Part shown: one piece after another, positions 29,701-57,686 of the stretch
Position numbering within the stretch: the stretch's first letter is position 1
Layout of the letters: each line of letters opens with the position of its first letter
Made by a program: the position numbers and the translations under genes
From: an uncultured candidate division Zixibacteria bacterium
GTDB taxonomy: Bacteria; Zixibacteria; MSB-5A5; UBA10806
Length of the DNA: 64,000 nucleotides
Assembly: GCA_963817915.1 (NCBI GenBank)
Contig: CAWFQL010000011.1
Coordinates: 128,001-192,000 of the forward strand
Reading direction: 5' to 3'
The notes under the pieces: generated by a model
The model's database searches: none
Told to the model about the DNA's origin: nothing
Seen by the model: the letters and a program-made list of their open reading frames with translations, nothing else

Positions 29701-32700
29701 TTATAGTCCCCAAATATCAGGAGCCCCATTCAGCGTTTCGGCATACCTGACCGCCTACGATTCCCATGGCAACATCAAACGCAATTATGATGCCTCCAGC
29801 GATACTGTCGTGATTACCGCCTCCAACGGCGGACAAATGACCAATAATATCCTGAATCAAAATGCGAGCTTCTTTAATGGTACTGCGAATCTCGTTGCTC
29901 TGAATACTACTTATTCCGGAGCTGGAGGGCCGGTAACATTCAATGCCCTATCTCAATCAGGCGCAACGGGTACATCAAACCCGGTCAATTTCAGCGCGCT
30001 TTATTGCAGCGGCCTTACGATTAATGAAACTGCCGTTTCTATCGGAGGAACGATGACCGGTTCAGTGAGTGTTCGCAATGAGGGCGGAGTCGTGGCCAAG
30101 ATAGATGATATAGGATTATACTCGGTTGGCGATCCATGGCAGGATGCGCTGGTATTCATACAACCACTGGATTCAATTGCGGCCGGCGCTGAATCGACTT
30201 ATACATTTTCGTATATTATTCCATTGGGCTTTTCGCCTTCGCATGTAAATATCGATATTCCTACTACGGCGACGATTATTGGCCGTTACGGATCATATAG
30301 TGTTTACGATACTCTTACCGGTTATCCGGATACTGTTCAAGTGCAGACTAATTCTCATCCCGGTTATGTGAACGGCTCTTTAAGCAGAGACACTTTGTCA
30401 ACGGGAGAATATTATTCACTTTCGCTCAGTCTTAGCAATTCCGGCGGCGCTGGGCTCGGCGTTTTGGATAGTTCGTATATTTATTTTTCCGATATTAGCA
30501 GCCACATATTCAGATCGAAAATTTCTACAGGCATATTTCTTCCACCGAACAGCCTGAATACTCCGGTGAATTTCGATTCGACCTTGGTCGTCGCATCATT
30601 TATTCCCGGTGATTATCAGGCCGCGATTCACTGCTTCGGCCGGGAAAATGGAATATTCGTAGTCGATACGATTGCCGTAGCAGATATAATTCATATTCAG
30701 TCTCGGGCAGTTCTCAGCTATCTTGAGAATACATTAAATCCCGATACACTCGTGGCAGGCCAGAATGCCATGCTGAGTGTTAGAGTCAGAAATAGCGGGA
30801 CATCCGAGTTTATTCTCGATAATCAATTTTCGCGCATCCATTTCGGCAATGCCCAAATGGAATTTATCGCCAATATCGATACCAGCGCCGGTCGCAGAAT
30901 AGATATTATAACCAGCGATACAACCCTGCATTTTGAACAAACCATATTATCACCGAATTTTAGCCTGGGTCAATTTACACCTGAGATTGCTATCAGGGGC
31001 AGCCAGAATGGCCGTCAAATTGAATTCAATATCGATACTAACCCGAATTCCATAAATGTCATTTCTCCATGCGCCGTTCGAATCGATTCAACTTATTCTA
31101 TTTCTCCCAACGCGCCATTTGTTAATGAGGGTCAGCAATGCTCTATACGAGTGGTAATTGAAAATACGGGAATGGAAGGGATCGATTCGGTTACTATTAA
31201 TCTTTTGCAATTCCCACGCGCGACATTTCAATCATCATTCCTGATTGAGCATCTCGATGGCGATAGCAGTATGGTCAGCCGCACATTCACTGGAGTTGCG
31301 GATTCGGTACCTAATTCAGGTCGGATTTTCAATTCAATTTTATCAGGAGGGGTAGGCAGTCGTTCCCGAATGATCGGCTTCGATTGCTCAACCATTGGAT
31401 AATACGGCGTTGTTCATGGTGGAATCCCCGGCGAATATCGTCATGCATCCCATAAATATCGTTGGCCCTGAATCCGCGCTTGATAGCATAATATCAATAA
31501 ACCAGCCGATATCGATTTCCGCTATGGCCACGAATTCGGGTCAGGCGGATATTATAGGCATTAAGAAGATGGTCTTGGATACGACCGGTTCCGGATTTAC
31601 GGTGTTGGATTCCGTAAACAGAGATTTCAATTTAGGCCAAACAGTTTCCTGGAATCTTAGAGCTCCAGGCAACGAAAGAGCTTCCTCGATTTTAAGTGTC
31701 GCTTTTCTGGATTCGCTTTTCGATAGAAATGATCTCCGATATGCAATAACACTTGGCTCTTCTTCCATAGAGTTTGTAGTCAATTCCGCTCCCACGATAT
31801 CGCATAGAGCTGAGATAGTCGGGCCGCCGGGCGCGACCGATAGTACTGTTTCCACTAATCAGGAATTTACAATTGCCGATTATTTTACTCCGGGCGGAGT
31901 ATATCAAAATTTGACCTGCAGTATTAATTTGCCATCGGGCTTTTCGACATCCGATTCGATTATCAAGCATCCTGATCCGGCCGAAAACTTCGTGCGCTGG
32001 AATGTTCGTGCTTCAACGAACGCCGGGCTCGATACCATATCAATATTAAGCTGGTTATACGGCGTCAATCTAAATGACTCTGTGGGAACCGCGCCCGAAA
32101 GAATACCTGTTACGGTTGAAAGATCGTCGTCTCTTAGGTTAACATCCAGGATTGCAGGGCCGGGCTCGGCATTAGACGGTATCTTGGAACCCGGATCGCA
32201 GCTCGAATATCGGGCGACAGTATTCAATGACGGTCAGGCAGCCGTATCAAGCGGCAGCCTTAATCTCAAATGCCCGATCTTGGGACTGGATTCTGTGCGG
32301 ACATTTAATGTCGGCGATAATATCGACTGGATTATCACGATGCCGGATACCGAAATAGCTGTACCGTTTCCGATTTGGACAAAAATTTCCAGTGTCCCGA
32401 CGGAAGAAAATATTCAAGCGCCTGCAATTACTGCCATAGATTCGTCTTCAATTACCGTGCTCGTAAAAAATCTATTACCCAGACTTATGATTACGAATTC
32501 CACCGGCTTTTCCGGCTCGCTTGTCAAAGGACAGACTCTGGATTATTTATCGCTTGAATCTGAAAAATGATGATAGAGGTGGGAGTTATACTATCGGAAT
32601 CGCATCCTTTTCATTTGATCTCAATTCAAATCCACCGGTCGATGCATCCCAACTATTCTCGTCATTAATCCTCTCCTCGGATTCAGGATCAGCTACTGCC

Positions 32701-33276
32701 AATATTGTCGATGGCAATAAAATTGTATTTGCGCTTCCCGATACGATTCACCTCTTGCCAGGCCGCTCGCTGCAATTCACAATGCAATTGGCCATTTCCC
32801 CCAATACGACTGTCGGCGATTTTTCCTTTTCGCTTTCAGAAAATGGAATCGCGGCTGTAATGATACAGCACGGCGGTCCGGCAACTCCGATTTCAGTCGT
32901 CAATTCCAGAGGAGATCCGTTTACCTGGAGCAGCAGCCCATCGGCTATATTTGAACAGAATTTTTCGGCTTCGGTCTCAAGTTATCCCAATCCATTCAAT
33001 CCAAGGGATGGCGGGGTTAAGATAGGATATTATTTAAGCCAAAATTCATCATTGGAAATAAAAATCTTTACTCTGTTCGGTGAATTGGTTTGGACTAAGA
33101 CTATCACACCTTCCGATCCTCAGGGACAAATGGGTATGCGCACTGAAGATACCGCGGTTCGCTGGGATGGCAAAAATGATTCGGGCCATGAAATCCGTTC
33201 TGGGGTCTATATCTGCATTATCAAAAACCTGACATCAGGCGAGGAGAAAAAATTAAAAATCGCTGTCGTAAAATAA
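26729..33276 (+). CDS. Giant (~2180 aa) repeat-rich surface protein with T9SS-like CTD; frameshifts near 31377 and 32554
   Basis: Three overlapping ORFs join by single-base deletions; signal peptide, Ig-like repeats, SYPNPF..FTLFGELV..WDGKND..SGVY. Confidence 0.75.
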
Positions 33277-35112
33277 TCGCGTTATCCGCGGTTTTTGTAA
33301 TTTCCTGTTTCGGCCTCGCGCTTTCGCAGGGCGATGCCGGTCGCGAATCGCCGTTTATTTTCGGCGCTGGCGGCCGTGGCATGGGGATGGGCCGGGCGTT
33401 TGTGGCCTTGAACGGCGATGCGTCGGCGCCATTCTGGAATCCCGGAGCCGCCGCGACTATCGATCGCGCCGGATTCATGGTATTTCACACATCTTTGTTC
33501 ATGGGGACTAATTACGACTGTTTTTCATTGTCTTATCCTTTTGAGACTCATGGAGTGGTCTCAATCTTTGCCGGACGACTCTCGACCGGCGATATTCAAG
33601 CACGGGACGAATTCAATCGCCTGATCAGGTCGTTTACATCTGCGGAAAATCAATTTGGGATCGGCTTCGGGCGAAATATAGCATACGGTTTTTATGCGGG
33701 AATGTCGCTCAAGGCCGCTTCGATGGAAATAAATTCAATCTCCGGATATGGTTTCGGTGCCGATGTCGGTTTGCAATTCAAACCTCATTATGTAAAAGGA
33801 TTGACTGCCGGGCTGAGCATAAACGATATCATAAAGCCCTCAATAAAATTATCTTCGGTAAGCGATCGATACCAGACTGTCTCGCGTTTCGGGCTATCAT
33901 ATACGCACGGCATTTTGAAAAATATGGAATCAACATTGGCATTACAGTATGAGACGGTCAAAGACCGAAAATCAATAACACGGGCCGGAATTGAAATGGC
34001 ATTTTATGATCATTATTTTCTGCGCGCCGGCATAGATGATTCCAGACCGACATTTGGCGCCGGCATAGATTATAATGATTTTGTGGTTCTGGATTATGCT
34101 TATGAGAATATCGAATTCTTCGGCTCCAGTCACCGAATTTCGCTGGCATTTTCTTTCGGCAAATCAATTGCCCGTTCGCGCGAGGAAGCCCGAGCTCGGA
34201 TTATACAGGACGAAAAAGAAACCTGGCAAAAAGAAGTCGAAAGCCAAAGAAAAATGGAATATAGGTCTTTTCTCGATAATGCTGATAGCCTTCGCCGGGC
34301 CGGCAAATTGGAGGACGCGCTTGGATATTACGAGCGAGCCCTGGCCATTGATAGCACTTCTCGACGTGCCAAAGCCTCCAGCGATAGCGTGATGAGCGAT
34401 ATAATTGCTCAAAGCATTTCAGTTACCCAGGACAAAAAACGGGAAGAGCTTATTTCCAATAGAATCGAGCTGGCGTTGCGGTCGTTGCGAGCCGGTCAGT
34501 ACAATGATGCGATTGCTCAATATCAAATGGTACTGGAGATCGAACCCAGCAATCCCACAGTTGTTGACCTGCTTCAATCGGCACGACAGATGCTCCAGAC
34601 TGAGATTAATAGCGTAAAATCGAAAGCTCAAGCTTCTCAGTCAGCAGGCGATTATGCCAATGCACTTGCTGGAATGGAAGAGACTTAACGATATTGCTCC
34701 GGCTGATAGCGAGGCATTGAGGGGGATAAATATCGCCAAAGGCCAATTGAAAGTCGATGGTCTTGTGGCCACAGCTGTCAACTCGATGAGAAATGGTGAA
34801 TATGCGAATGCGCTTACTTATCTTCAACAAGCGCAGTCACTTAGGCCGAACGATAAGTCTATCGGTTCACTGCTTGCGGAGGCCAAGGCAAAATCCGCGC
34901 CGCCCACGACGCTAAATGATATAAAGGCATCAAAAGAAAATTGGTCTATATATCTTAACGGTCTGGAACAGTATCAATCAGGAAAGTATTCTAAAGCCCT
35001 GGAAAATTGGGAATCGTTGCGAGAATTCTATCCCAATAATCCCGAGCTTGAGAAAAACATCAGCCAGGCCAAGAGCCGTCTTCAAACCGAGGGCGGAGCC
35101 CCCAAAGATTAG
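33252..35112 (+). CDS. PorV/PorQ-family beta-barrel fused to coiled coil and TPRs; frameshift near 34667; start uncertain
   Basis: GAGGRGMGMGRAFVA..DASAPFWNPG, LDYAY..HRISL, then TPRs; signal peptide lies upstream of the ATG at 33381. Confidence 0.8.
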
Positions 35113-35167: not shown

Positions 35168-38113
35168 ATGGGAAAAAAACCAATTAAAGAAGTATTCATG
35201 AGCTTCGCTGCCGAGGAATCCCAAATGGAGGATATCCGAAGCAGCATTCGCGATGTATTGGCCGATTCCGACCTTACAACGAAAGACGTTAATAGTGTTC
35301 TTCTGGCTCTTGAGGAAGGCTGTACCAATGTTATTCGTCATGCATATCTCTATGGCCCTGGCACCATTCGAATTAAGGTAAAGCTTTACCCTGGCAAGGT
35401 TCAATTTTCGATATTTGATCGTGGCCGGGCGTTCGACTTTGACCATTCCGATGTGCCTAATTTGGATCGCTATGTCAAAACGGGACGCAAAGGCGGTTTG
35501 GGGCTTTATCTTATTCGCAAGATGATGGATTCTGTCGATTATCATTCCCGCGATGGCGAAAATGAACTTCGAATGGAAAAAATATCCGATAAAACCAGCT
35601 CGCGATCGATTCGCATTCCAGGTTTCTCAATCCGTGTAAAATTCGCCTTATGGGCATCGCTTGTGGTATTTATGATTGTTGCGGGTGTCTTTTACTATTT
35701 TGATAATCGCGGCCGAAAAAATGCCAGAGAACGATTCTTCGATGGCTCCACGAACGCGATGGAAACATTCGTATCGGATATTGGGGATAAAATCTTATTG
35801 AGGGATTTGGATCTTAATAAATCCGCGGCGTCCTGGCTCGACGCCAACAAAAATCTGTTTTCGTTTATCGTGGTGACAGATACCGGAGGGATTATTATTG
35901 CCGATCCGGAAAGCCCTTCGCTTTTCCTTTCTGCATTTCGCGGAATTGACAGCGGAGATTATAATACTGATATCGCGGTGAAAGACAGCCTGAACAACAA
36001 AATCTTTTATTACAAAAGAGCAGCCAGGATTAATGATCAAACTGTCGGCTACGCTTATTTCGGATTAAGAGAAAGTCCTTTGAAATCCGAATTATCTCAA
36101 ACGCGTACCGGCCTGCTGTTGATTGCATTTGCGGGCCTGTTTGTAGGTTTCATGGCAGTCTATGCCTTGTCCAACTACTTTGTGAAGCCTATTCAAAAAC
36201 TGACCGAAGGCGTACTTAGATTTGGCGAGGGTAATTTAGATCAATCACTGCCGGTGGATGGTTCGGATGAATTTTCGGAGATTGCCCGGGCCTTTAATGA
36301 AATCACAGGCAAATTCAAAAAGGCGCAAGAGAATGTTGTCGAGCAGGAGCGATTGCAAAAAGAAATGCAGGTCGCTCAGGAAATTCAGCATACACTGCTT
36401 CCGCGCACTTTCCCCGATATCGAAGGTTATGATATTGCTACAGTTTACAGGGCCGCCAAAGATGTAGGCGGTGATTATTTTGATTTCGTCAGAATCGATG
36501 AAAACACGCTCGGAATTATCGTCGCCGATGTGTCCGGAAAGGGTATTCCCGGTTCATTGGTTATGACGATGATTCGAACCGCTTTGAGAATGGAAGCGAG
36601 AGGCAATTTCTCCCCCATAGATATTCTTTCGAGAGTAAATAATTTCGTTGCCGATGATGTCAAGAAGGGCATGTTCATTACCATATTTTTCATAATGCTC
36701 AATTCTGAGAGTCGGGCGATATCGTTCTCATCGGCTGGCCACAATCCCATGATTCTTTATCGCAAAGAATCGAATTCTTGCTATTTCCTGAATCCTCGCG
36801 GAATGCCGCTGGGGATAAGTCTCCCTGACGGTGTCAGTTTCGAGAAATCCTTGGAATCAGATAAAGTACAATTGAAAAAAGATGATATGTTGATTGTCTA
36901 TACCGATGGCATAACCGAAGCCATGAACAAGCTCGGTGAGCAATTCGGCAATGATAGGCTGATTCAATTCATAAGAGACAATTCAGATCTTCATCCCAAG
37001 GATTTTGCCAGCAAGCTGGATTTCGAAATCAATAAGTTTACTGGCGGCGCGCCTCAAAATGATGATATCACGTTAGTCGTTATTAAAGAAAAATTGATGC
37101 TCGACGAGGTAATATTCCAGAAACGAAGACGGCTTATAGAGATGGTAGAAAAAGAAGGCGTTCCTCTTGAAGAAGCCTGCACTCAAATGGGAGTATCGAC
37201 CTCGACCTATTATAAATATCTTCGCAGATGGCAAAAATTAGGCGATATGGGTTTATTGAATAAGAAGCTTCGCGCCGAGACCAATATAAAGCAAATTTCA
37301 ACCGAAGTCCGCAAGGAAATCTTGAAGATTGTCAGGGAAGATCCCGAGCTCGGAGGCAAAAGAATTCTTCAAAAGCTTTCGGAATTGGGAATTCAGAATA
37401 TTGATATTCGAGGGCTGTATCTTGAACTCGTAAGAATGCGCCTTAATACCAAAAAACTCAGATTAGAATATGTCGAGCGGGTTGGCGGTTCCACTCCTGA
37501 AATTCGGGCTGAACTCGAAAAAGAAATCCTCAAAGAGGTCAGCAAGAAAGAAGAATTCGATAGAGTTGAGTATATCGAAACTATTAAAAAGAATCTTGAT
37601 CAGAAAAAAGAACAGCTCGGAACGTCGGCCAGGGGGCTTGTCAGCAAGCTTCAGCAAATGGAGCCTGTTCTTGGTGATGCCAGCCTCTATGGTGAAATCG
37701 CCGCTGAACTTGGCAAACTGGGCGAGGGGGAGGATATCGCCAAATTATTTGAGAATCTAATCCTCAAAATGGCGTATAAGAATAAGGGTATCGAGAAATC
37801 ATCAGAGACAGAAATTCCTGCGCCAGCGACAATAAAGCCCATGCCCGATTTGTCCGCAGAAACACCCGTAACGGCAGGCATCGTTTCGGAAGAGGACTCA
37901 ATACCGAAAATAGCACCCAACGATAGTAATTCGGAAATAGCAATCAAGCCGGAAACCGTTGCTCCAATTCAGCCGTTACCCGAGCAGGAAAATACCCCAA
38001 TCGACGTAATTGAAAATGCCAGCAAGCCTCAAATTGATGAAGAAAAAAAGGATGAAGAATTGGATTGGGATGATTATGGTAAGAAGCTTGTTGAAAAATT
38101 TAAGAAAGAATGA
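35168..38113 (+). CDS. Membrane fusion: RsbW-like HATPase + 2TM sensor + HAMP + SpoIIE PP2C phosphatase + transposase-like HTH domains
   Basis: EEGCTNVIRHAY, DRG, GGLGL; VGGDYFD, DVSGKG, SAGH, YTDGITE, DDIT; GVSTSTYYKYLRRW. Confidence 0.9.
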   Translation: MGKKPIKEVFMSFAAEESQMEDIRSSIRDVLADSDLTTKDVNSVLLALEEGCTNVIRHAYLYGPGTIRIKVKLYPGKVQFSIFDRGRAFDFDHSDVPNLDRYVKTGRKGGLGLYLIRKMMDSVDYHSRDGENELRMEKISDKTSSRSIRIPGFSIRVKFALWASLVVFMIVAGVFYYFDNRGRKNARERFFDGSTNAMETFVSDIGDKILLRDLDLNKSAASWLDANKNLFSFIVVTDTGGIIIADPESPSLFLSAFRGIDSGDYNTDIAVKDSLNNKIFYYKRAARINDQTVGYAYFGLRESPLKSELSQTRTGLLLIAFAGLFVGFMAVYALSNYFVKPIQKLTEGVLRFGEGNLDQSLPVDGSDEFSEIARAFNEITGKFKKAQENVVEQERLQKEMQVAQEIQHTLLPRTFPDIEGYDIATVYRAAKDVGGDYFDFVRIDENTLGIIVADVSGKGIPGSLVMTMIRTALRMEARGNFSPIDILSRVNNFVADDVKKGMFITIFFIMLNSESRAISFSSAGHNPMILYRKESNSCYFLNPRGMPLGISLPDGVSFEKSLESDKVQLKKDDMLIVYTDGITEAMNKLGEQFGNDRLIQFIRDNSDLHPKDFASKLDFEINKFTGGAPQNDDITLVVIKEKLMLDEVIFQKRRRLIEMVEKEGVPLEEACTQMGVSTSTYYKYLRRWQKLGDMGLLNKKLRAETNIKQISTEVRKEILKIVREDPELGGKRILQKLSELGIQNIDIRGLYLELVRMRLNTKKLRLEYVERVGGSTPEIRAELEKEILKEVSKKEEFDRVEYIETIKKNLDQKKEQLGTSARGLVSKLQQMEPVLGDASLYGEIAAELGKLGEGEDIAKLFENLILKMAYKNKGIEKSSETEIPAPATIKPMPDLSAETPVTAGIVSEEDSIPKIAPNDSNSEIAIKPETVAPIQPLPEQENTPIDVIENASKPQIDEEKKDEELDWDDYGKKLVEKFKKE

Positions 38114-38856
38114 TTAAACTCGCTATCCTGACATCCAAAGGCGGGACAGGGAAGACTACTACCGCTATTAACCTTGGACATGGTCTGGCTTTATCCGGGA
38201 AGAAGGTGTTGTTAGTCGATTGCGATCCGCAGGGGTCAACATCGGCGGCTTTTGGTGTTGATGGCGAAAGGGGACTTTCGAATTTATTAACGGATGGTAA
38301 AGTCGATATTTATCAGGTTAGACCAAGGCTCTTTTTATTGCCGTCGGGCAAGAAACGTTTGGCTGACCTTGAGATGACATTAGCCACTATGGACGATAAA
38401 GAATACAGAATCAGCAACGCCCTGGGAAGGCTTTCGGGAAGCGATTGGGTTATTTTAGATTGCTCTCCGTCAATAAATATAATAAATTTAAATGCTTTAG
38501 GGTTTGCGGAACATCTCCTGATTCCAGCATCACTGGATTTTTTTTCGCTGGAGGGAGTTAAATCCACGATGGAATTGGCTAAAGAGATTACGGCAAAAGG
38601 AAAGGGAATGCTTGAGATTCTCGGAGTATTGCCGACATTTTATGATAGAAGGACTATTATTTCGAGGCTGGCTTTAGATGAACTGCGGAATAGCTACGGC
38701 CCGCTCGTATTTAATACTGAAATAAGATTGAATGCCGAGATAAAGAAATCGCAATGGTACAGGCAAACCGTTTTTGAATATGCCCCATTTTCTCATGGAG
38801 CTTATGATTATTATAAATTATCGAAAGAGGTCCAGGAAAGATTGGAGACGAAATAA
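38110..38856 (+). CDS. ParA/Soj-family ATPase (orphan)
   Basis: KGGTGKTT, DCDPQG, LDCSPS, GVLPTFYD. Confidence 0.92.
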   Translation: MIKLAILTSKGGTGKTTTAINLGHGLALSGKKVLLVDCDPQGSTSAAFGVDGERGLSNLLTDGKVDIYQVRPRLFLLPSGKKRLADLEMTLATMDDKEYRISNALGRLSGSDWVILDCSPSINIINLNALGFAEHLLIPASLDFFSLEGVKSTMELAKEITAKGKGMLEILGVLPTFYDRRTIISRLALDELRNSYGPLVFNTEIRLNAEIKKSQWYRQTVFEYAPFSHGAYDYYKLSKEVQERLETK

Positions 38857-38858
38857 AT

Positions 38859-39581
38859 ATGAGTGATATAAAAATATCTTTAGACAGCGCGGGTCCCAAG
38901 GGAGAAATTTCAGTAGTCAGGGTCGACGGGGTCATTGATACCATGACTTCCAGCGACCTCGAAAAAGTAATGAATTCTCTTCTTGAGAGGGGCAAATATT
39001 ATATCGTAATCGATCTCGGCGGGGTAGATTATATATCATCAGCGGGATGGGGTATATTTATTTCGAATATAAGAGAAATCCGCCAGCATTCTGGCGATAT
39101 CAAGCTGGCTCGTATGATTCCCAATGTGTACGAGATATTTGAGCTGTTGGAATTCGATAGCATTCTTAAAGCTTTTGACAGCGTCGAAAAGGCCAAATCG
39201 GATTTTAGCTTCATCAAAAGAAATGGCGCCGACTCCGGCGAAAGAGTGCCCGTAGAGGTTGCGGTTGCGGCGCTGGATTCCGCGGAACCTACTCAGAAGA
39301 TTAAAGAAGTGGCGAATCCGTCAACGAATCTGCAAGATGCTCCCAAACAGCTTTCGCAGTTAGAAAAGAAATCAACCGCTCCCGGGCTTCAGGAAATAGT
39401 TGTTGAGATGGTCATAAAGGACCCCTTCTTTTCGATATCAGAAATTAAAACCGAAATCGCCAGAAAATATCCGACCGCCCAATCTGGTTGGTGGCAGATT
39501 TGGAATGTTTTGCGTCAAAATCGCCTCTTAAGCAAGAAAAGCCGTTTTCGCCTGTCACGTTTTAAGAGCGGAGTTCGATAA
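38859..39581 (+). CDS. STAS anti-sigma-factor antagonist with C-terminal HTH-like domain
   Basis: VDYISSAGWG phosphoacceptor motif, linker, then DPFFSISEI...WNVLRQNRLLSKKSR. Confidence 0.88.
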   Translation: MSDIKISLDSAGPKGEISVVRVDGVIDTMTSSDLEKVMNSLLERGKYYIVIDLGGVDYISSAGWGIFISNIREIRQHSGDIKLARMIPNVYEIFELLEFDSILKAFDSVEKAKSDFSFIKRNGADSGERVPVEVAVAALDSAEPTQKIKEVANPSTNLQDAPKQLSQLEKKSTAPGLQEIVVEMVIKDPFFSISEIKTEIARKYPTAQSGWWQIWNVLRQNRLLSKKSRFRLSRFKSGVR

Positions 39582-39584
39582 TTA

Positions 39585-41429
39585 ATGATCAATAAGCCAA
39601 AGGCGTGGCCCTTTATAGTAATTTCATTGATGCTGGCCGGCATAGTAATAGCATCAGGGTTTTTCTTGAAAAACCTTAATGCAAGAATATCTATTTATCT
39701 GGCAGGAATATTGATATTGGGGTATTTGATCTATTCATATATCCGTGCCTCCTGGAAGGCCGCCATCATCGAAAAATTAATCAATACAGATTCAAATGAT
39801 AAGGATACCCTGGCCAATTCATTGCTTTCGGAGATAATCGCATCAGGTATTCAGAAAAAATCGATTCAGCAAGCGGCATCGGAAATCATAAAATCAAAAT
39901 TTGGCATCGATAAATTCGTAATTTATTTTCGCGATGACGATAAATTAATTCCTCGAATATATTCAAATGTTAATATTAAAAATCTGGGATATCTGAACAC
40001 CGATAAAATTAAAAAATACCTGGGTTCAAATATGGATTCCGGAATAATATTTAAGAATGACACCTTATTTCACGCCGCTGCAAAAAATAATGATAATGAT
40101 GAATTCGAATCCTATAATATTTTTGCTTTTTCCTGGGGCAAAGGCGGATTAATTCTGATAATTTTCGATGATACCATTGGGCATTTTACCGAAATATTAA
40201 AAAATGCCGACATGAACAAAATGCTTTGGCCGGGTTTGGATTATACATTAAGAGTCCATTTCGATCTCAAGGAAAATGCCGCCGATCTAAAGCAAAATCG
40301 AATAGAATTGGGTCGCGCGAAGAAAGAATTGATTGAATTGAATAAAGAACTCAACAAGAAGATGCTCGATGTCCAGTCGTTCGTCAAGATATCAAACGAT
40401 CTTTATTCACTATTCAATGAAGATCAGCTATTCCCTACATTGAAAAACACGATTAGCAATCAACTTGGGGCGACTAAAGTCGAAATCTTAAAGCCATCCG
40501 GCGACGGGACTTTCAAATTATCCGCCGAAGCTACGGGCAATTCCAATTCGGGATTTGAACTTATATTAGACAGTGAATCGGCTCTATTGAAATTATTGCA
40601 AAAAAGCGCCAAACCACTTTTAATGCCGCTGGTAGGCTCAGGATTAAGCCCCAAAGAACCATTTCTCGACGCGGCAGCCCAGGCCGGTTTTCAGATAGCC
40701 TCGCCAATAAAGGTCAGCGGCCGAATTGAATGCATTATTTTAGTGGGCGAAAAGAAGGATAAAGGACAATATCTAAACCAGGATATAGATTCATTTTATA
40801 GTATCAGTAATATTGCCTCGCTGGCATTGGAAAATATAAAACAGTATTCAACAATAGAGAAACTTTCATATACTGACAGCATGACGGGTATTTATAACTA
40901 TCGCTATTTCTATAAACGTCTCAGCGAGGAAATTCTGAGAGCTCAAAGATACAACCGTGAAATCGCATTGGTAATCATGGATATCGATAATTTCAAAACT
41001 TTTAATGATAATTTTGGCCATCAGGCCGGAGATATGGTATTAAAACAATTGTCGGAGCTGATAACTCGGACGATAAGGTCAATTGATGTTGTCAGCCGCT
41101 ATGGAGGCGAGGAATTCTGTATTATCATGCCGGATACGGGGACTGCCAATTGCAGTATTTTTATCGAACGTTTAAGAGCCGAAATTGCGGGTTTTAAATT
41201 TGAATCGGAGGCGTCCCATATTAATTCAATAACAGTTTCAGTCGGGGGAGCGGTCTACCCATATCACGGGACTAATCCCGACCGATTGATATATTGTTCT
41301 GATATGGCATTATTGAAAGCAAAATCGTCGGGCAGGAACCGCGCGTTGATGTATAGCGTAAATAGTGATGATAAAGGGGATTTAATGTCTGGGAGGTCAG
41401 ATGTCGCTAAAAGGGAATATACAGAATAG
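39585..41429 (+). CDS. Membrane GAF-like/GGDEF diguanylate cyclase
   Basis: 2 TM helices, TDSMTG, DIDNFK, RSID I-site, RYGGEEF. Confidence 0.93.
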   Translation: MINKPKAWPFIVISLMLAGIVIASGFFLKNLNARISIYLAGILILGYLIYSYIRASWKAAIIEKLINTDSNDKDTLANSLLSEIIASGIQKKSIQQAASEIIKSKFGIDKFVIYFRDDDKLIPRIYSNVNIKNLGYLNTDKIKKYLGSNMDSGIIFKNDTLFHAAAKNNDNDEFESYNIFAFSWGKGGLILIIFDDTIGHFTEILKNADMNKMLWPGLDYTLRVHFDLKENAADLKQNRIELGRAKKELIELNKELNKKMLDVQSFVKISNDLYSLFNEDQLFPTLKNTISNQLGATKVEILKPSGDGTFKLSAEATGNSNSGFELILDSESALLKLLQKSAKPLLMPLVGSGLSPKEPFLDAAAQAGFQIASPIKVSGRIECIILVGEKKDKGQYLNQDIDSFYSISNIASLALENIKQYSTIEKLSYTDSMTGIYNYRYFYKRLSEEILRAQRYNREIALVIMDIDNFKTFNDNFGHQAGDMVLKQLSELITRTIRSIDVVSRYGGEEFCIIMPDTGTANCSIFIERLRAEIAGFKFESEASHINSITVSVGGAVYPYHGTNPDRLIYCSDMALLKAKSSGRNRALMYSVNSDDKGDLMSGRSDVAKREYTE

Positions 41430-42429
41430 TCTTATGGTTAGCCCAAAAATTAATTGTACTTCTCGAATTGTGCTAATATTTGCTATTTTGTTCATTTCGG
41501 CTAACGCGCAGGATAAGGATACTTATATTATTGGTCCGACGGACAGATTAGCCATATCATTCTGGCAGCAGCCCGATTTAAATACAACAGTTCGAGTCAG
41601 TGATAATGGAAATATAACCTTGCCGGTAATAGGGGAGATCAGGGCTGCGGGACTGACCACCGCGGAATTATCAAAAAAAATTGTAGAGCAAATGGTGTTT
41701 TATAATAGTCCTGTATCACAGGCGACAATAGCAGTCACTGAGTATAATTCCCGGACAGTGGTTGTCACCGGGCAGGTATTGACCCCCGGAAGCCATAGCT
41801 ATGAAAAAATACCTGATATCTGGAAAGTCATTCTCGATTCTGGAGGGCCCACATCTCAGGCGAATCTTTCCGGTGTCACGATTGTACGGAAGGATGGCGA
41901 AAAGACTGATGTAATTGATGTCGATTTGTATAAAATAATCAAAGATGGTGATTTATCGAAGGCTCCTCCACTCAAACCGGGTGATTTGGTCAATATTCCT
42001 GTTTCACCATATGGGTCGGCGGTTGAGCTTGCCGGAACGCCTCAAGCTGAACGGAAAAATATCTATTTTGTTTTTGGAAGGGTTACAACTCCCGGGGCCA
42101 GGGACCTTCAAGAGGGTATCGATATAATGGATGCCATCACGCTGGCCGGTGGACCTCTTGCGGATGCTGATTTGAGAAATATCAGAGTAATTATGAAAGA
42201 CGCCGGGCCGTCGAATATAGTCAAAATTGATCTCGAAAATTATATTGATAAGGGAACTCCTTCTCGTTTTTTGCTTCGTGCTGAAGACACCGTGGTTATT
42301 CCACTGCGTAGGGACGGCACTTTCACAAATATTACGAATAGGCTTGCTACGGTTGTACCAATCATTACCGCCATAGGGACATTGATATTATTATACTATA
42401 ATATTCAAGAGATAAATAGGAGACGTTAG
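41401..42429 (+). CDS. Polysaccharide export protein (OPX/Wza-like, SLBB domains)
   Basis: YIIGPTDRL, GNITLPVIG..AAGLT, two SLBB repeats. Confidence 0.88.
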   Translation: MSLKGNIQNSLMVSPKINCTSRIVLIFAILFISANAQDKDTYIIGPTDRLAISFWQQPDLNTTVRVSDNGNITLPVIGEIRAAGLTTAELSKKIVEQMVFYNSPVSQATIAVTEYNSRTVVVTGQVLTPGSHSYEKIPDIWKVILDSGGPTSQANLSGVTIVRKDGEKTDVIDVDLYKIIKDGDLSKAPPLKPGDLVNIPVSPYGSAVELAGTPQAERKNIYFVFGRVTTPGARDLQEGIDIMDAITLAGGPLADADLRNIRVIMKDAGPSNIVKIDLENYIDKGTPSRFLLRAEDTVVIPLRRDGTFTNITNRLATVVPIITAIGTLILLYYNIQEINRRR

Positions 42430-42432
42430 AGC

Positions 42433-44016
42433 TTGAGTAACGATAAAAAGCAAATAAATCTTAAAGAATACTGGGGCATTCTTACGCGTCGCAAGACGCT
42501 CCTAATATTGCCTATTTTGATAATACCATTAGTCTCAATTGCGGTAAGCTATTTTTTAAAGCCTCAATATGTTTCATCTGTTACCATTTTGACCGGAGAA
42601 ACCAATATTTTGCCCCCTTCAGTCGAGAGAGAATTGCAAAGCGGACAAAGATTCGATTGGACTGAGCCGCAGGAACGGCTGATTTCGATTACGAGTAAGA
42701 TCACATCAACTAAGTATTTGAGAAGATTGATTTCAGTTCTTGATATTAAAGCTACACCTGAGATAATGAAGGTCGTGACTGAAACCAAGACCGCATTCCC
42801 GGATATTTCTGAAGCTGATCTTGCCGAAAATATTATGGCTGATCAGCTTAGAAATAATATAACTGTCAATTTACGCTCGAATAACGTTTTTGAAATTCTT
42901 TTTGCGTCCGCCGACCCAATTATGGCGCAGAAGCTTGCCAAATCACTCGCCGACATTTTTATTGAAGAGAATTTAGCACAGGATATGGCGGGGATTAGGT
43001 CCAATATCAGCTTTTCGGAAGAGCAATTAGCAGTTTATCACGAGAAGCTTAAAGATGCCGAGGACAAGTTGAAGGACTATCGTGAAGGCATTCTGGCGAC
43101 ATCTGTCGGGGAAGATACTACTGGCGCAAGCCTCCGGATGATAATTTCCGCTGCAGAAGCGCTTGATTTGGAAATACGAAAAGAAGAGGAATCTCAGGAT
43201 AGTGTGCGATTATATCTGGTAAACAATAAGGTCGATTTGGCAAATCTGGTGTTGCCGGTAAACCTGCAAAACGAAAAATCCAGGCTCATTAATCTCTTAT
43301 CGACTCTAACTGAATTGTTGACTAGAAATAGCTGGCGAGACCCCAAAGTAGTCAATTTAAACGAAGAAGCCAAAAATCTGCATGATCTCATTACACGGGA
43401 AATCGGCATTTTTACTGAAAGTCAATATGCAGATAAATCTTCTCAATTTAAAGATAAAATATCTGAATATCTAACTGGTTCGGTATCGCTCGAATATAGC
43501 AGGGCAAAGAAAGAGGCTCTCGATAAAAGCGTAGGCAAGATCAAATCGCGGATAACCAAAAATCCTGATACCGAAGTAACTATTCAGAGGCTGCAAAGCG
43601 AGGTCAATACTTATCGTGATTTGTACAATACATTCGTGATGCATTCGCAGTACGGAGCGATAGACCAATCCGCCAAGAAGGTCGAAGCTGAAGCCAAATT
43701 TATGATAATAAAGCCAGCCTCGCTCCCATTAACGCCCGAATCACCCAACAGACAGAAACTGGCATTAATGGGAATAGTTCTGGCGTTAGCAATTGGAGTG
43801 GGAGCAATCATTATACTGGAATTGCTCGATAACTCATTCAAGAAGATCGATGATGCTGAAAATTATTTGAATATTGCCGTAATAGGGACTATTCCAAAAA
43901 TCCTTCTTCCCTATTATTCGCCGATTAAAAAAAGAATTCCAATCCTAATCGGAACCGGCATCAGTTTTATGCTTATTATATTAATACTTTATTTAAATTT
44001 AAGGAAAAGCGGGTAA
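42433..44016 (+). CDS. Polysaccharide co-polymerase (Wzz/GumC-type membrane module)
   Basis: INLKEYWGIL, N- and C-terminal TM helices, coiled coil, PESPNR, LDNSFK. Confidence 0.88.
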   Translation: MSNDKKQINLKEYWGILTRRKTLLILPILIIPLVSIAVSYFLKPQYVSSVTILTGETNILPPSVERELQSGQRFDWTEPQERLISITSKITSTKYLRRLISVLDIKATPEIMKVVTETKTAFPDISEADLAENIMADQLRNNITVNLRSNNVFEILFASADPIMAQKLAKSLADIFIEENLAQDMAGIRSNISFSEEQLAVYHEKLKDAEDKLKDYREGILATSVGEDTTGASLRMIISAAEALDLEIRKEEESQDSVRLYLVNNKVDLANLVLPVNLQNEKSRLINLLSTLTELLTRNSWRDPKVVNLNEEAKNLHDLITREIGIFTESQYADKSSQFKDKISEYLTGSVSLEYSRAKKEALDKSVGKIKSRITKNPDTEVTIQRLQSEVNTYRDLYNTFVMHSQYGAIDQSAKKVEAEAKFMIIKPASLPLTPESPNRQKLALMGIVLALAIGVGAIIILELLDNSFKKIDDAENYLNIAVIGTIPKILLPYYSPIKKRIPILIGTGISFMLIILILYLNLRKSG

Positions 44017-44020
44017 ATAA

Positions 44021-45139
44021 GTGGTTTTCAACGGTTATACAGACAAATTCAAAAGACTGGGAAGGGAGTATCTTTTTCAGACTTCTATAGATAATAGTCG
44101 CAAACAAGTAGTAAGTTCGTTGTTTCATGCGGGGCAGCTGCTGAATAGTATCGCTACTCCATTTCAGGATGCTTCGCAGGGAGAGAAGTTGTTTGAAAAG
44201 GCGCTAAGTTTTCATAAGCAAAATCTTGGGGATCTGGATTCATTGCTTGGCTTGGCCGAACGGATGCGAAGTTTAGAAAAGCCGGATATAATCGAAAAGC
44301 TCGGGAAATCATTATGTGCAAGACAGCTTTATGATGAAGGTTTGGAACTGCTGCTTCTGGCTTCTCAGAAATACCCCGAAAGTCCCGGGCTGCATCATGT
44401 TCTCGGCAAATTATACCTGGCCAAGGGACAGGTCAATGATGCCGAAACTGAATTTGGACGCGCCGTTGATTTGGCGCCCGATTTCCCGGACTATAGAAAC
44501 GCCCTTGGAATCGCCTATTTAAAATCAAACAAGGCTGTGGCCGCAATCTCCGAATTCAAAAAAGCCGTGACGCTTAATATCTATTTTGATAAGGCTTATT
44601 TTAATCTGGGTTTGGGGTATATAGCCAATGGCATCATTAGGGAAGATTTCAATCTGGCCAAAAATCTCGTCCAAAATAGCATGGATGCTCTCCAAAAAGC
44701 CGCGTTGTTTAATCCGGCTTATAATACGGATAAATATACCGAGGGCCTTGAATTTCTTAATGAAGGCGAATATGAAAAGGCCTATTCAACGTTGTCGAAA
44801 GTTGCCGAGGAACATACATCTCGTTCCGCGGAAGAGCATTTGGTCGAATTATATCTTCGATATATTCATAACGAGACCGGAATGTCCGAAGAGGGGATTA
44901 ACAACTTTATTGAACGGATTAAAGACTTATTGAAATTAAATCCAGGATATGCCGATTTGCATAATGAATTGGGCATGGCATATACTATCCTGTGTAAATT
45001 TATGAATGATAAGGCAATTTATCATTTTCAGGAGGCGCTCAAAATTAATCCCAATTTTACAAAGGCTGTAAAAAATCTAAAATTATCGAAAAATGACTTG
45101 AAGGGATTCGAAATTCTTTTGGAAGCGATTTTAAAATGA
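44021..45139 (+). CDS. TPR-repeat protein
   Basis: PDFPDYRNALG, PGYADLHNELG repeats. Confidence 0.85.
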   Translation: MVFNGYTDKFKRLGREYLFQTSIDNSRKQVVSSLFHAGQLLNSIATPFQDASQGEKLFEKALSFHKQNLGDLDSLLGLAERMRSLEKPDIIEKLGKSLCARQLYDEGLELLLLASQKYPESPGLHHVLGKLYLAKGQVNDAETEFGRAVDLAPDFPDYRNALGIAYLKSNKAVAAISEFKKAVTLNIYFDKAYFNLGLGYIANGIIREDFNLAKNLVQNSMDALQKAALFNPAYNTDKYTEGLEFLNEGEYEKAYSTLSKVAEEHTSRSAEEHLVELYLRYIHNETGMSEEGINNFIERIKDLLKLNPGYADLHNELGMAYTILCKFMNDKAIYHFQEALKINPNFTKAVKNLKLSKNDLKGFEILLEAILK

Positions 45140-45864
45140 AAAATAACGGCAAATTTCCGCCATTAACGGCTGTCTTCGATAAGGAATCATCGGTTGCGAC
45201 TGAATTCAGAAGGCTTTATTCCAATTTAAAATCCCGCAAGGGAACTGAAAATTTAAAAACGATAATGATTACTTCCGCGATAATTGGCGAGGGCAAATCC
45301 CTTACAAGTTCCCTGCTATCAATGACAATGGCGGATCTGACCAAAGCCAAAATTGGATTGGTTGATTTCGATTTAAGACGTCCCAAATTGAATATTTATT
45401 TTAATTTGCCTATAGAAAATGGCGTCTCCGATGTCCTTGGGGGCAAAATCGGCATAAAGGAAATTTGCCGCAAGACTACTATACCAAATCTGACAGTGCT
45501 TTGCGCGGGGAAACCAAATAATAATCCAAGCGAAATTATCGATAGAGCCGATATACCTGCATTTTTTCAGGAGCTAAAATTCTATTTCGATTACATTGTG
45601 ATCGATTCGCCCCCTGTAATTCCCGTTTCGGATCCATTGCTGATCGCTGATCAGGTTGATGGCGTGTTATTAGTTGTAAGGGCCGGAACAACCCAGCGCG
45701 AGGTAGTCGGCAGGGCCGTAAATCTTCTGAAGAATGCCAAAGTCAATCTTCTTGGCGCCGTATTGAATGACTGCGAAAGCGTTTTGCCCTATTATTACAA
45801 AGAAAGCTACTACGGATATCGTTATTATCACAAAGATAATAAAAAATCCCAAAAGACCGCATAA
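45136..45864 (+). CDS. BY-kinase (CpsD/CapB family tyrosine kinase)
   Basis: EFRRL, TS..GEGKS, DFDLRRP, IDSPP, C-terminal Tyr cluster YYYKESYYGYRYY. Confidence 0.93.
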   Translation: MKNNGKFPPLTAVFDKESSVATEFRRLYSNLKSRKGTENLKTIMITSAIIGEGKSLTSSLLSMTMADLTKAKIGLVDFDLRRPKLNIYFNLPIENGVSDVLGGKIGIKEICRKTTIPNLTVLCAGKPNNNPSEIIDRADIPAFFQELKFYFDYIVIDSPPVIPVSDPLLIADQVDGVLLVVRAGTTQREVVGRAVNLLKNAKVNLLGAVLNDCESVLPYYYKESYYGYRYYHKDNKKSQKTA

Positions 45865-46083
45865 CCCCGACCTTAATGCATTTTTGTTGCATTGTATTGC
45901 ATAGTGGGTTGATTTAGTCCATTTTAGTTACCCCATATTTTAGCCTAATATTAATTTATGTTCTTATTTCACGCCGCCATTGTGGTAATATAACTTATTA
46001 CACTGTTTATATTTATAAGACAATGAGCATTAAAATTAATATCAATAAAATTAACTAAAGTTGAATCTCTCAAATCCCATTTG

Positions 46084-46099
46084 TGGCAGATATTTTGCA
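46084..46099 (+). promoter_or_regulatory. Sigma54 promoter
   Basis: TGGCAGATATTTTGCA (GG-N10-GC), AT-rich region and TGCA motifs upstream. Confidence 0.7.
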
Positions 46100-46140: not shown

Positions 46141-47040
46141 ATGCGTTATCAAAATCCAATTCCAAGCCCCATGGCACACTACTGGGAAGAAGAGGCAATT
46201 AATGCCTGGGGAACTTGGTTAAGGTTACGTAAGGGCGGTCGCCGCGTCTTAAATTTTGTGCTTAGCGAAGTAGTTCTTGCTAATATTTATCTGCTTTCCG
46301 GCTTGATCGCAAACTCTGGCCTGCTCTTGGAAGCAAGAGCAAAGTCCGCAGTTTTATCGAATCATATAAACATCGGAGCGATTCTTAAAAGATCTGTGGA
46401 TATTATCGGAGCGGCATTTGGGCTGGTATTGACATTGCCTATCTGGATAATAGTACCGATCGCCATTAAACTGGATAGTTGCGGATCAGTTTTTTATACT
46501 CAGGAAAGAGTTGGGATTAACAGACGCAGAGGCAATCGCAGAAAAATTGCTGTCGATGGCGAAGAAAATAGAGTTTCGGTCGAAAGAAGAAAGAAATTCA
46601 GCTACGGTAGATCATTTACGATATTAAAATTCCGAACTATGTACATCAACGCAGAATCGATTTCAGGTCCGAAATGGGCATGCAAGAATGATCCCAGAGT
46701 GACAAAATTGGGACGAATTATGAGAGCCACCAGGATTGATGAAATTCCCCAATTATTGAATGTTTTAATGGGAGATATGAGCCTGGTTGGGCCGCGGCCG
46801 GAAAGACCGTTCTTTGTAGACAAGCTTCGTCAAAGTATCGATGAGTATGCCTGCAGATTCGAGGTAAAGCCGGGAATCACAGGGCTTGCTCAGGTCGAAC
46901 ATAAATATGACGAGAGTCTCGAGGATGTAAGCAAGAAAATTAAGTATGATCTTAATTATATTCGAAATTGGACTTTATTCCAGGATATGAAGATTATCGT
47001 TAAGACCATATCGGTGGTTTTAACCGCCCGAGGGATGTAG
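46141..47040 (+). CDS. Priming polyprenyl-phosphate sugar transferase (Bac_transf)
   Basis: KRSVDI, KFRTM, DPRVT, IDEIPQL.NV..GDMSLVGPRPE, KPGITGLAQ. Confidence 0.93.
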   Translation: MRYQNPIPSPMAHYWEEEAINAWGTWLRLRKGGRRVLNFVLSEVVLANIYLLSGLIANSGLLLEARAKSAVLSNHINIGAILKRSVDIIGAAFGLVLTLPIWIIVPIAIKLDSCGSVFYTQERVGINRRRGNRRKIAVDGEENRVSVERRKKFSYGRSFTILKFRTMYINAESISGPKWACKNDPRVTKLGRIMRATRIDEIPQLLNVLMGDMSLVGPRPERPFFVDKLRQSIDEYACRFEVKPGITGLAQVEHKYDESLEDVSKKIKYDLNYIRNWTLFQDMKIIVKTISVVLTARGM

Positions 47041-57659: not shown

Positions 57660-57686
57660 TAAAGGCTCAGGATAATAAGCCGATAG
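57660..57686 (+). promoter_or_regulatory. Sigma28 (FliA/SigD)-type promoter
   Basis: TAAA-N15-GCCGATAG. Confidence 0.65.

Follow-up and report, generated by a model that had tools for sequence, protein, structure and literature searches.

A STAS protein with an IS481-type helix-turn-helix tail beside a membrane kinase-phosphatase in Zixibacteria: a candidate phosphorylation-controlled regulator of exopolysaccharide genes

In an uncultured bacterium of the candidate division Zixibacteria, a STAS protein of 240 amino acids and the membrane-bound kinase-phosphatase encoded near it carry related helix-turn-helix (HTH) domains, an observation confirmed at the level of profiles and families, not in the pairwise comparison. 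The arrangement suggests that the STAS protein is a phosphorylation-controlled regulator of slime (exopolysaccharide, EPS) genes, with the enzyme as the probable adder and remover of its phosphate, and the two related HTH domains do not appear to need each other. All positions refer to the window, that is, the whole stretch of 64,000 nucleotides that was analysed.

The genes and elements of the locus are all found on the + strand. The enzyme of 981 amino acids (35168..38113) is composed of an RsbW/SpoIIAB-like GHKL serine kinase domain (residues 13-138, 35204..35581; PF13581, HATPase_c_2, E 4e-27), two hydrophobic segments, read off the sequence only, a HAMP domain (residues 334-378), a SpoIIE/PP2C phosphatase domain (residues 445-640, 36500..37087; PF07228, E 2e-48, with its acidic motifs in 59-60 of 60 homologues), a first HTH of the HTH_23/HTH_28 type that is not common to the STAS protein (HTH1, residues 642-696, 37091..37255), a second HTH homologous to the tail of the STAS protein (HTH2, residues 712-772, 37301..37483), and an acidic tail. 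A gene for a ParA/Soj-like ATPase (38110..38856) lies between the enzyme gene and the STAS gene (38859..39581; 63 related loci), which encodes a STAS anti-sigma-antagonist domain (residues 15-112, 38901..39194) with an SSAG motif (residues 60-63, 39036..39047), a variable linker (residues 119-176, 39213..39386) and the HTH tail (residues 177-237, 39387..39569). Directly 3' follows a GGDEF diguanylate cyclase gene (39585..41429), then Wza-like export, Wzz-like, TPR and CpsD/Wzc-like genes for EPS export (41401..45864) and, beyond a conserved triple TGCA repeat (45877..45901) and a conserved sigma-54-type promoter motif (46084..46099), the gene of a priming sugar transferase (46141..47040; PF02397). 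The GGDEF gene is present at 61 of 83 relative loci, in many of which wza-type export genes then follow; the named relatives belong mostly to the Zixibacteria.

The assignment of the STAS domain is based on PF01740 (62.9 bits, E 2.7e-17) and TIGR00377 (58.5 bits), both above cut-off, and on matches to TM1442 and SpoIIAA. The predicted phosphoacceptor Ser61 is the alignment counterpart of SpoIIAA Ser58, the position changed from serine to alanine in PDB 1TID, for which PMC13373217 gives the S58A replacement. Ser61, Ala62, Gly63 and Trp64 are invariant in 82 of 82 STAS-HTH proteins, and the preliminary description was right to call the phosphoacceptor motif intact. The N, G1 and G2 boxes of the kinase and the motifs of the phosphatase can be recognised in this enzyme and in 54-60 of the 60 homologues of full length, so that a GHKL kinase and a PP2C phosphatase with intact motifs reside near the STAS gene, as in a partner switch. 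A sigma-70 region-2 match was found nowhere inside the window; there are 13 elsewhere in the genome. Among the enzyme variants, one (P0061, 1432 amino acids) contains three fused STAS domains, and others (P0060, P0062-P0067) carry C-terminal TPRs.

The tail of the STAS protein begins at Leu177, in a stretch of 60 residues without a Pfam match; PF01498 is weakly matched by 31 of 58 members of the tail family. Its AlphaFold model (pLDDT 92) shows an HTH-class fold of four helices and no strands, with the character of an IS481/Tc1-type second HTH to which a further C-terminal basic helix has been added. Only one of the two transposase HTHs is represented, there is no wing, and the linker to the STAS domain, about 55 residues, is variable. 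The tail is basic (pI 11), the median net charge amounting to +8 in 75 relatives versus +2.5 in true IS481 HTH2 domains, and Arg229 is invariant among the relatives. The third (recognition) helix opens with aromatic residues (GWW or GYF) in the place where IS481 has polar Ser or Thr, and this aromatic start could be a protein-binding surface. In structure comparison by VIA-align all fold matches of the tail model were generic HTHs (Z ≤6.0), and Foldseek returned nothing under E 0.001; the sequence search of the PDB gave one match, not significant, the word search with the tail alone recovered only itself, and the Atlas search gave no usable match. Elsewhere, a DnaJ protein (P0184) ends in a tail domain of this type, and two genomes (G133 and G269) have the tail twice.

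The kinship of the two HTH domains had been proposed by eye, from a common DP and the pattern L..xRL.xKKxR. Both peptides are present, but some of the letters belong to this genome and not to the families at large (ENP in place of EDP in the enzyme family, xLL in place of RLL in the STAS family), and single-sequence BLASTP of the tail against the enzyme gave no similarity (E 28), so that the match by eye alone did not exceed chance. Its register, on the other hand, is identical to that of the profile-profile alignment which had been named as the check, and the families match beyond chance: hhalign of 60 tails against 83 enzyme regions aligned 57 columns with HTH2 with one gap and 18% identity (P 83.6%, E 8e-6, score 30), while 200 column shuffles gave a mean score of 9.6 and a maximum of 15.5, none reaching the true value. 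Across comparisons the HH probability of tail versus HTH2 was 84-94%; it was 63% in a repeat alignment with the whole two-HTH region, 0.9% with the reversed profile and 0.6% with HTH1. Separately computed AlphaFold models have the same four helices at matching distances (4-14/20-30/38-47/53-64 in the one, 72-84/90-99/107-116/122-132 in the other), and the VIA-align matches of the two models (Z ≤6.0 and ≤6.6) have 21 of the top 50 entries in common. An independent profile, built from 12 distant tail fragments and excluding the window sequence and any enzyme sequence, was applied to whole genomes (E ≤0.05, scoring pre-filtered candidates only) and recovered the tail plus the HTH2 of the enzyme, with no third match, in 19 of 21 and in 17 of 24 genomes, which makes 36 of 45 genomes with exactly two matches and no transposase; the tail alone was found in 2 + 6 genomes and nothing in one. 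In the genome of the window the tail scored E 1e-7 and HTH2 E 4e-5. Some of the genomes searched do hold IS481-like copies, as does G009, where nine of the ten matches to the enzyme HTH region are IS-like. Furthermore, a profile of 20 distant STAS tails gave at least 15 bits for 84 of 90 enzyme HTH2 domains and for none of 20 IS481 HTH2 domains. The "same module" of the preliminary description therefore applies to HTH2, which both partners have; the enzyme carries HTH1 and HTH2, the STAS protein only the second HTH. The recognition helices of the two differ strongly, GWWxxW in the tail versus DxRxLYEEL in the enzyme.

The origin of both domains can be traced to insertion sequences. The HTH region of the enzyme matches IS481 transposases, HTH1 and HTH2 together corresponding to the bipartite IS481-type head; residues 652-765 match NF033577 with E 3e-16, far below the family cut-off, and the match covers the profile no further than position 109 of 284. 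IS481 HTH2 can be aligned with both HTH2 domains, and no DDE or integrase-core family match was obtained in either protein. Judged by their sequences, both the STAS tail and the HTH2 of the enzyme derive from the second HTH of IS481-type elements and have been domesticated. As to how they are related to each other, one IS481 subgroup already carries the extra C-terminal helix (LET-x-K/R), so the L..KK.R motif in both is by itself no proof of duplication. In group scores the Zixibacteria tails differ little in their affinity to enzyme HTH2 (36) and IS481 (33), and distant tails reach 61 versus 42; tandem HTH1-HTH2 repeats, some fused to GT2, score 75-85 against the STAS tail where enzyme HTH2 scores 36-61, but these repeats were collected with the tail profile, which biases their scores upward, the 20 IS481 controls having been collected with the enzyme profile. 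Two sequences (P0068, P0155) were excluded from all groups as repeat artefacts, and three (P0175, P0195, P0196), weak matches without STAS, tail-fragment or repeat character, were left ungrouped. Trees of 64 columns are weak: a clade of STAS tail and enzyme HTH2 has AU p 0.42 and 0.31, one of STAS and GT2-type repeats AU p 0.61, so that neither grouping is rejected; enzyme HTH2 falls nearer IS481 in two of three trees, and the third sets all domesticated groups opposite IS481. Three divergent enzyme HTH2 domains fall inside the STAS group in one tree, perhaps as an effect of long branches. Between helices 2 and 3, a [YF]G loop occurs in 18 of 30 and 14 of 17 STAS-type tails and in 18 of 90 enzyme HTH2 domains, compared with 0 of 20 in IS481 and 1 of 25 in GT2-type repeats; its presence in distant tails and distant enzymes and its rarity elsewhere favour a common domesticated ancestor. 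The term "paralogous" used in the preliminary description thus holds in the sense of one domain family, whereas in the sense of one copy being the duplicate of the other it is neither shown nor rejected by the trees. Tail and enzyme HTH2 very probably belong to the same domesticated subfamily; for a direct sister duplication the chances are evenly balanced. At four loci (L014, L084, L085, L086) the enzyme ends in a divergent, shorter HTH tail, whose HTH2 cross-matches the STAS-tail profile and stands among STAS tails in one tree. Tandem head pairs of IS481 type without transposase core were also seen in P0166, P0167, P0171, P0174, P0177-P0180, P0183, P0200 and P0203-P0205, several of them fused to large GT2 glycosyltransferases, a further domestication that is again beside polysaccharide synthesis.

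The distribution of the tail is wide: it is present in 228 of 285 Zixibacteria genomes, nearly always as a single match, and in a library clustered at 50% it has 143 representatives at E ≤0.001, many of them STAS-fused and including clusters dominated by Calditrichota. Pooled dN/dS, with several pairs near saturation, is 0.08 for the tail (13 hand-picked close pairs) and 0.07 for the enzyme HTH2 (8 pairs). The tails could in principle be neutral remnants of IS481, whose type of ancestry they clearly show, but they are single, fixed in position, fused in frame without a transposase core, conserved across the phylum and accompanied by further relatives in clusters dominated by Calditrichota, and the codon data add to this, so that the idea of debris is refuted and retains hardly any probability; the selection claimed in the preliminary description is borne out. 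Mobility, with the varying copy number and position of an IS481 transposase, is contradicted by one copy in this genome, fixed synteny and one or two matches per genome in the 228.

The enzyme HTH region is much less widespread: at E ≤1e-20 it is matched in 60 of 285 genomes, and most of the weaker matches are frames of IS481 size, while that in G262 is a divergent enzyme. The tail is present in 58 of these 60 genomes, and about 170 of the 228 tail-bearing genomes are without the enzyme HTH, the conserved residues of the tail being unchanged there. Of 83 loci read directly, 31 have an enzyme with a long HTH tail and 4 one whose HTH tail is short and divergent; at 27 (of the 62 adjacent enzyme genes) the enzyme stops shortly after the phosphatase, 26-50 residues past its last motif in the 19 listed, and 21 loci are without an enzyme, as judged within the fetched DNA only. 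The STAS tail is kept at the 27 loci with an HTH-less enzyme and at 19 STAS loci without an enzyme in the fetched DNA, whereas ParA accompanies 31 of 31 enzymes with a long HTH tail and none of the 52 other loci. These counts, which describe lineage-level patterns and not independent events, indicate that the enzyme HTH is optional and tracks ParA, and that the STAS tail does not need it. At the C-terminal end of many long-tailed enzymes (region 37484-38113 here) stands a conserved peptide, D-W/F-x-x-Y-x-K-K-L, which might serve as a membrane helix or as a contact to ParA.

In one lineage of relatives the linker is the site of a run of nine or ten adenines, which is absent from the STAS gene of the window. 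In 17 of 77 STAS genes the frame closes directly behind the STAS domain and the HTH continues in another one, and the run stands at the junction in all 17 apparently split genes and in 10 fused ones (27 STAS genes in total: L023, L026, L033, L037, L039, L040, L044-L056, L058, L059, L061, L092-L094, L096, L097). It was found at 24 of 27 loci with an HTH-less enzyme and in none of 31 STAS genes whose enzyme has the HTH; the background is 37 such runs in 1.19 Mb. A reading in which many genomes encode the HTH as a gene of its own was rejected, since all 17 loci of this kind have the run at the junction. The simplest reading would be slippage at the run, giving both STAS and STAS-HTH, and phase variation is possible. 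Given the runs in split and fused genes alike and their low background, the fused form seems to be kept beside plain STAS.

Conserved DNA elements were found at several places. An alignment of 19 intergenic regions before the sugar transferase gene shows conservation of the motif TGGCA-N6-TTGC and, about 200 bp further upstream, of the triple TGCA; we take the former to be a sigma-54 promoter and the latter, a candidate enhancer or operator, to be probably an enhancer for an NtrC-type activator. The triple pattern has three occurrences in the genome, one of them beside such a promoter; a similar triple repeat is found at the operon head at three other loci (L037, L039, L097), and a gene for an NtrC-type activator precedes the STAS gene in another lineage. 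In two other lineages motifs of the form TAA-N15/16-G[CG]CGAT, presumably sigma-28-like, are conserved before the wza or the STAS gene, hinting that the module may belong to the flagellar regulon in some lineages; the loose pattern is at chance genome-wide (576 matches), and only its conserved position in alignments counts. It was noted before STAS at L028, L034-L036, L042, L043 and L060, before wza at L037, L045, L051-L053, L058, L061, L062, L093 and L097, and also at 57660 in the window. A FliA-type flagellar sigma factor is present in 274 of 285 genomes, here inside the flagellar cluster. Among the alignments listed no conserved palindrome upstream of the STAS or enzyme genes was seen by eye, and none of the conserved elements found could be assigned to either HTH.

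A precedent for a STAS protein with a DNA-binding tail is the CapK/CapS system (Chambers et al. 2026, PMC13373217), in which CapS is a STAS-winged-HTH repressor released by GHKL phosphorylation, its STAS homodimer binding palindromes and phosphorylation breaking the dimer. The likeness comprises a STAS protein that has the counterpart of SpoIIAA Ser58 and ends in a domain of the HTH class, an adjacent GHKL serine kinase that also has an HTH, a locus without a sigma factor, and an adjacent operon as the likely target. There are also differences: the MarR/ArsR-like winged HTH of CapS follows directly on the STAS domain, whereas here a wingless IS481-type HTH2, strandless in the model and with IS481/Tc1 HTH2 as its profile affinity, comes after a linker of 55 residues; CapK is a soluble HTH-STAS-GHKL protein that senses single-stranded DNA and whose HTH is dispensable, whereas the enzyme here is arranged as kinase, membrane segments, HAMP, PP2C, HTH1 and HTH2 and contains no STAS domain; and the target of CapK/CapS is an adjacent immune operon, while here GGDEF and EPS genes follow.

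By analogy with CapS, we tentatively favour, with somewhat less than even confidence, the view that the STAS-HTH protein is a phospho-switched, predicted nucleic-acid-binding regulator of EPS and c-di-GMP genes. It would form the output of a partner switch without a sigma factor of its own: the membrane enzyme would perceive an extracytoplasmic signal, its two antagonistic domains, kinase and phosphatase, would set the phosphorylation of Ser61, to go by their intact motifs and what is known of the families, and the basic four-helix tail would bind nucleic acid, the likeliest target being DNA of the linked EPS/c-di-GMP operon. As a single HTH of this kind is a weak binder, avidity may come from STAS-mediated self-association, broken or made by phosphorylation on the model of CapS. 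The HTH2 of the enzyme would be an optional add-on that travels with HTH1, the long tail and ParA, and would more likely position the membrane enzyme on the chromosome than pair with the STAS tail. Such a regulator is consistent with the intact STAS domain, Ser61 and catalytic domains, with the HTH fold, its basic character and invariant arginines, Arg229 among them, with purifying selection on a tail that is kept where the enzyme HTH or the enzyme itself is absent, with the GGDEF neighbour, with the adenine runs and with the CapS precedent (PMC13373217). The aromatic start of the recognition helix, the single wingless HTH, the generic fold matches and the variable linker, unlike the directly joined domains of CapS, argue against it, as do the lack of a conserved palindrome in the alignments listed and the conserved motifs, which look like sigma-54, enhancer and sigma-28 elements for other proteins to read. 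Nearly as likely is a protein-protein output as in HsbA or SypA, where the STAS domain would bind the neighbouring diguanylate cyclase, an anti-sigma factor or the kinase depending on phosphorylation and the tail would be a docking or localisation module, tying the protein non-specifically to the nucleoid or offering a surface to some other protein, and not a sequence-specific regulator. The GGDEF gene adjoins in most loci; the neighbouring cyclase HsbD is a binding partner of HsbA in its phosphorylated form (PMC5085249), and FlgM one of PA3347 in its unphosphorylated form (PMC8256260); the near-universal FliA-type sigma factor and the sigma-28-like motifs of two lineages point the same way, but FliA is also found in families without the tail. 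The aromatics heading the recognition helix, the same domain on GT2 glycosyltransferases and a DnaJ protein, and the plain STAS that the adenine-run lineage would also make fit a docking role as well; the greater basicity relative to IS481 HTH2 and the invariant arginines do not.

The preliminary description had gone further and supposed that phosphorylation could control a hetero-assembly on DNA; on this model both HTH2 paralogues would bind neighbouring or shared sites, or each other, and enzyme and substrate would assemble under the control of Ser61 phosphorylation. Tail and enzyme HTH2 are mutual closest relatives within these genomes (the 36 of 45 with exactly two matches), distant members of both have the [YF]G loop, and nearly every genome with the enzyme HTH has the tail too. 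Nevertheless, the tail is found in 228 genomes and the enzyme HTH in about 60, the tail residues are unchanged without it, many enzymes end after the phosphatase, and the enzyme HTH tracks ParA and not the tail; an obligatory assembly is therefore unlikely, and as a general mechanism the proposal is not supported. A DNA site common to both HTH2 domains is likewise unlikely in view of their recognition helices, and a sister grouping of the two is neither shown nor rejected. Hetero-assembly is possible in lineages having both HTHs, and overall we consider it improbable. It may even be imagined that an IS481 head was domesticated once and duplicated onto the kinase-phosphatase and its STAS substrate, which would meet on the DNA of the EPS operon, ParA placing the enzyme there and the sensor in the membrane directly switching a promoter-bound regulator, and that lineages losing the enzyme HTH evolved a slippery poly-A for STAS and STAS-HTH; this scenario, too, we hold to be unlikely.

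SypE of Vibrio fischeri is a soluble response regulator with neither a membrane sensor nor an HTH, and the enzyme described here differs from it in these respects. The likeness to SypE/SypA (PMC8256260) lies in an enzyme that is both serine kinase and phosphatase and has a STAS protein as its substrate, in a polysaccharide and biofilm locus, and in an output that is no known sigma factor, SypA being STAS-only, unlike the STAS-HTH protein. HsbR/HsbA/HsbD of Pseudomonas aeruginosa (PMC5085249 and PMC8256260, both available in part) is similar in its kinase-phosphatase, STAS protein, neighbouring diguanylate cyclase and sigma-28 link; HsbA is there described without an HTH, and the input is an Hpt phosphorelay, not a membrane HAMP sensor. 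Compared with the head of IS481 transposases (NF033577; HTH_23/HTH_28 plus HTH_32), the domains here are distinguished by the lack of a DDE core, single copy, fixed context and purifying selection, and the STAS tail by keeping only HTH2, with its aromatic recognition-helix start. The STAS-HTH system belongs to neither CapK/CapS nor IS481 and would represent a further form of partner switching; no paper on the combination of STAS-HTH2 and kinase-phosphatase was found in the literature searched, which covers few subscription journals.

Several partner switches beside polysaccharide loci, SypA being the standard example, lack a known output. In the present case a candidate output domain is part of the STAS protein itself; most of a bacterial phylum conserves it, Pfam misses it, and the question of the output becomes directly testable. 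If the STAS-HTH protein is indeed such a regulator, the logic of CapS, phospho-STAS controlling DNA binding, would have arisen a second time and independently, here out of a transposase domain, and bacteria would offer a clear example of a domesticated transposase part in signalling.

Two minor observations concern the surroundings of the locus. The gene of a large secreted protein (26729-33276) is spread over three frames and a PorV-like/TPR gene (33381-35112) is split over two, each compared with uninterrupted homologues; the frame changes, near 31.2-31.4 kb, 32554 and 34654-34667, may be assembly errors or decay. Outside the window, the same genome has two more plain STAS/RsbW/phosphatase clusters (C11:197810-199938 and C16:296427-299552), one of them near flagellar genes, and cross-talk of these with the enzyme of the window is possible.
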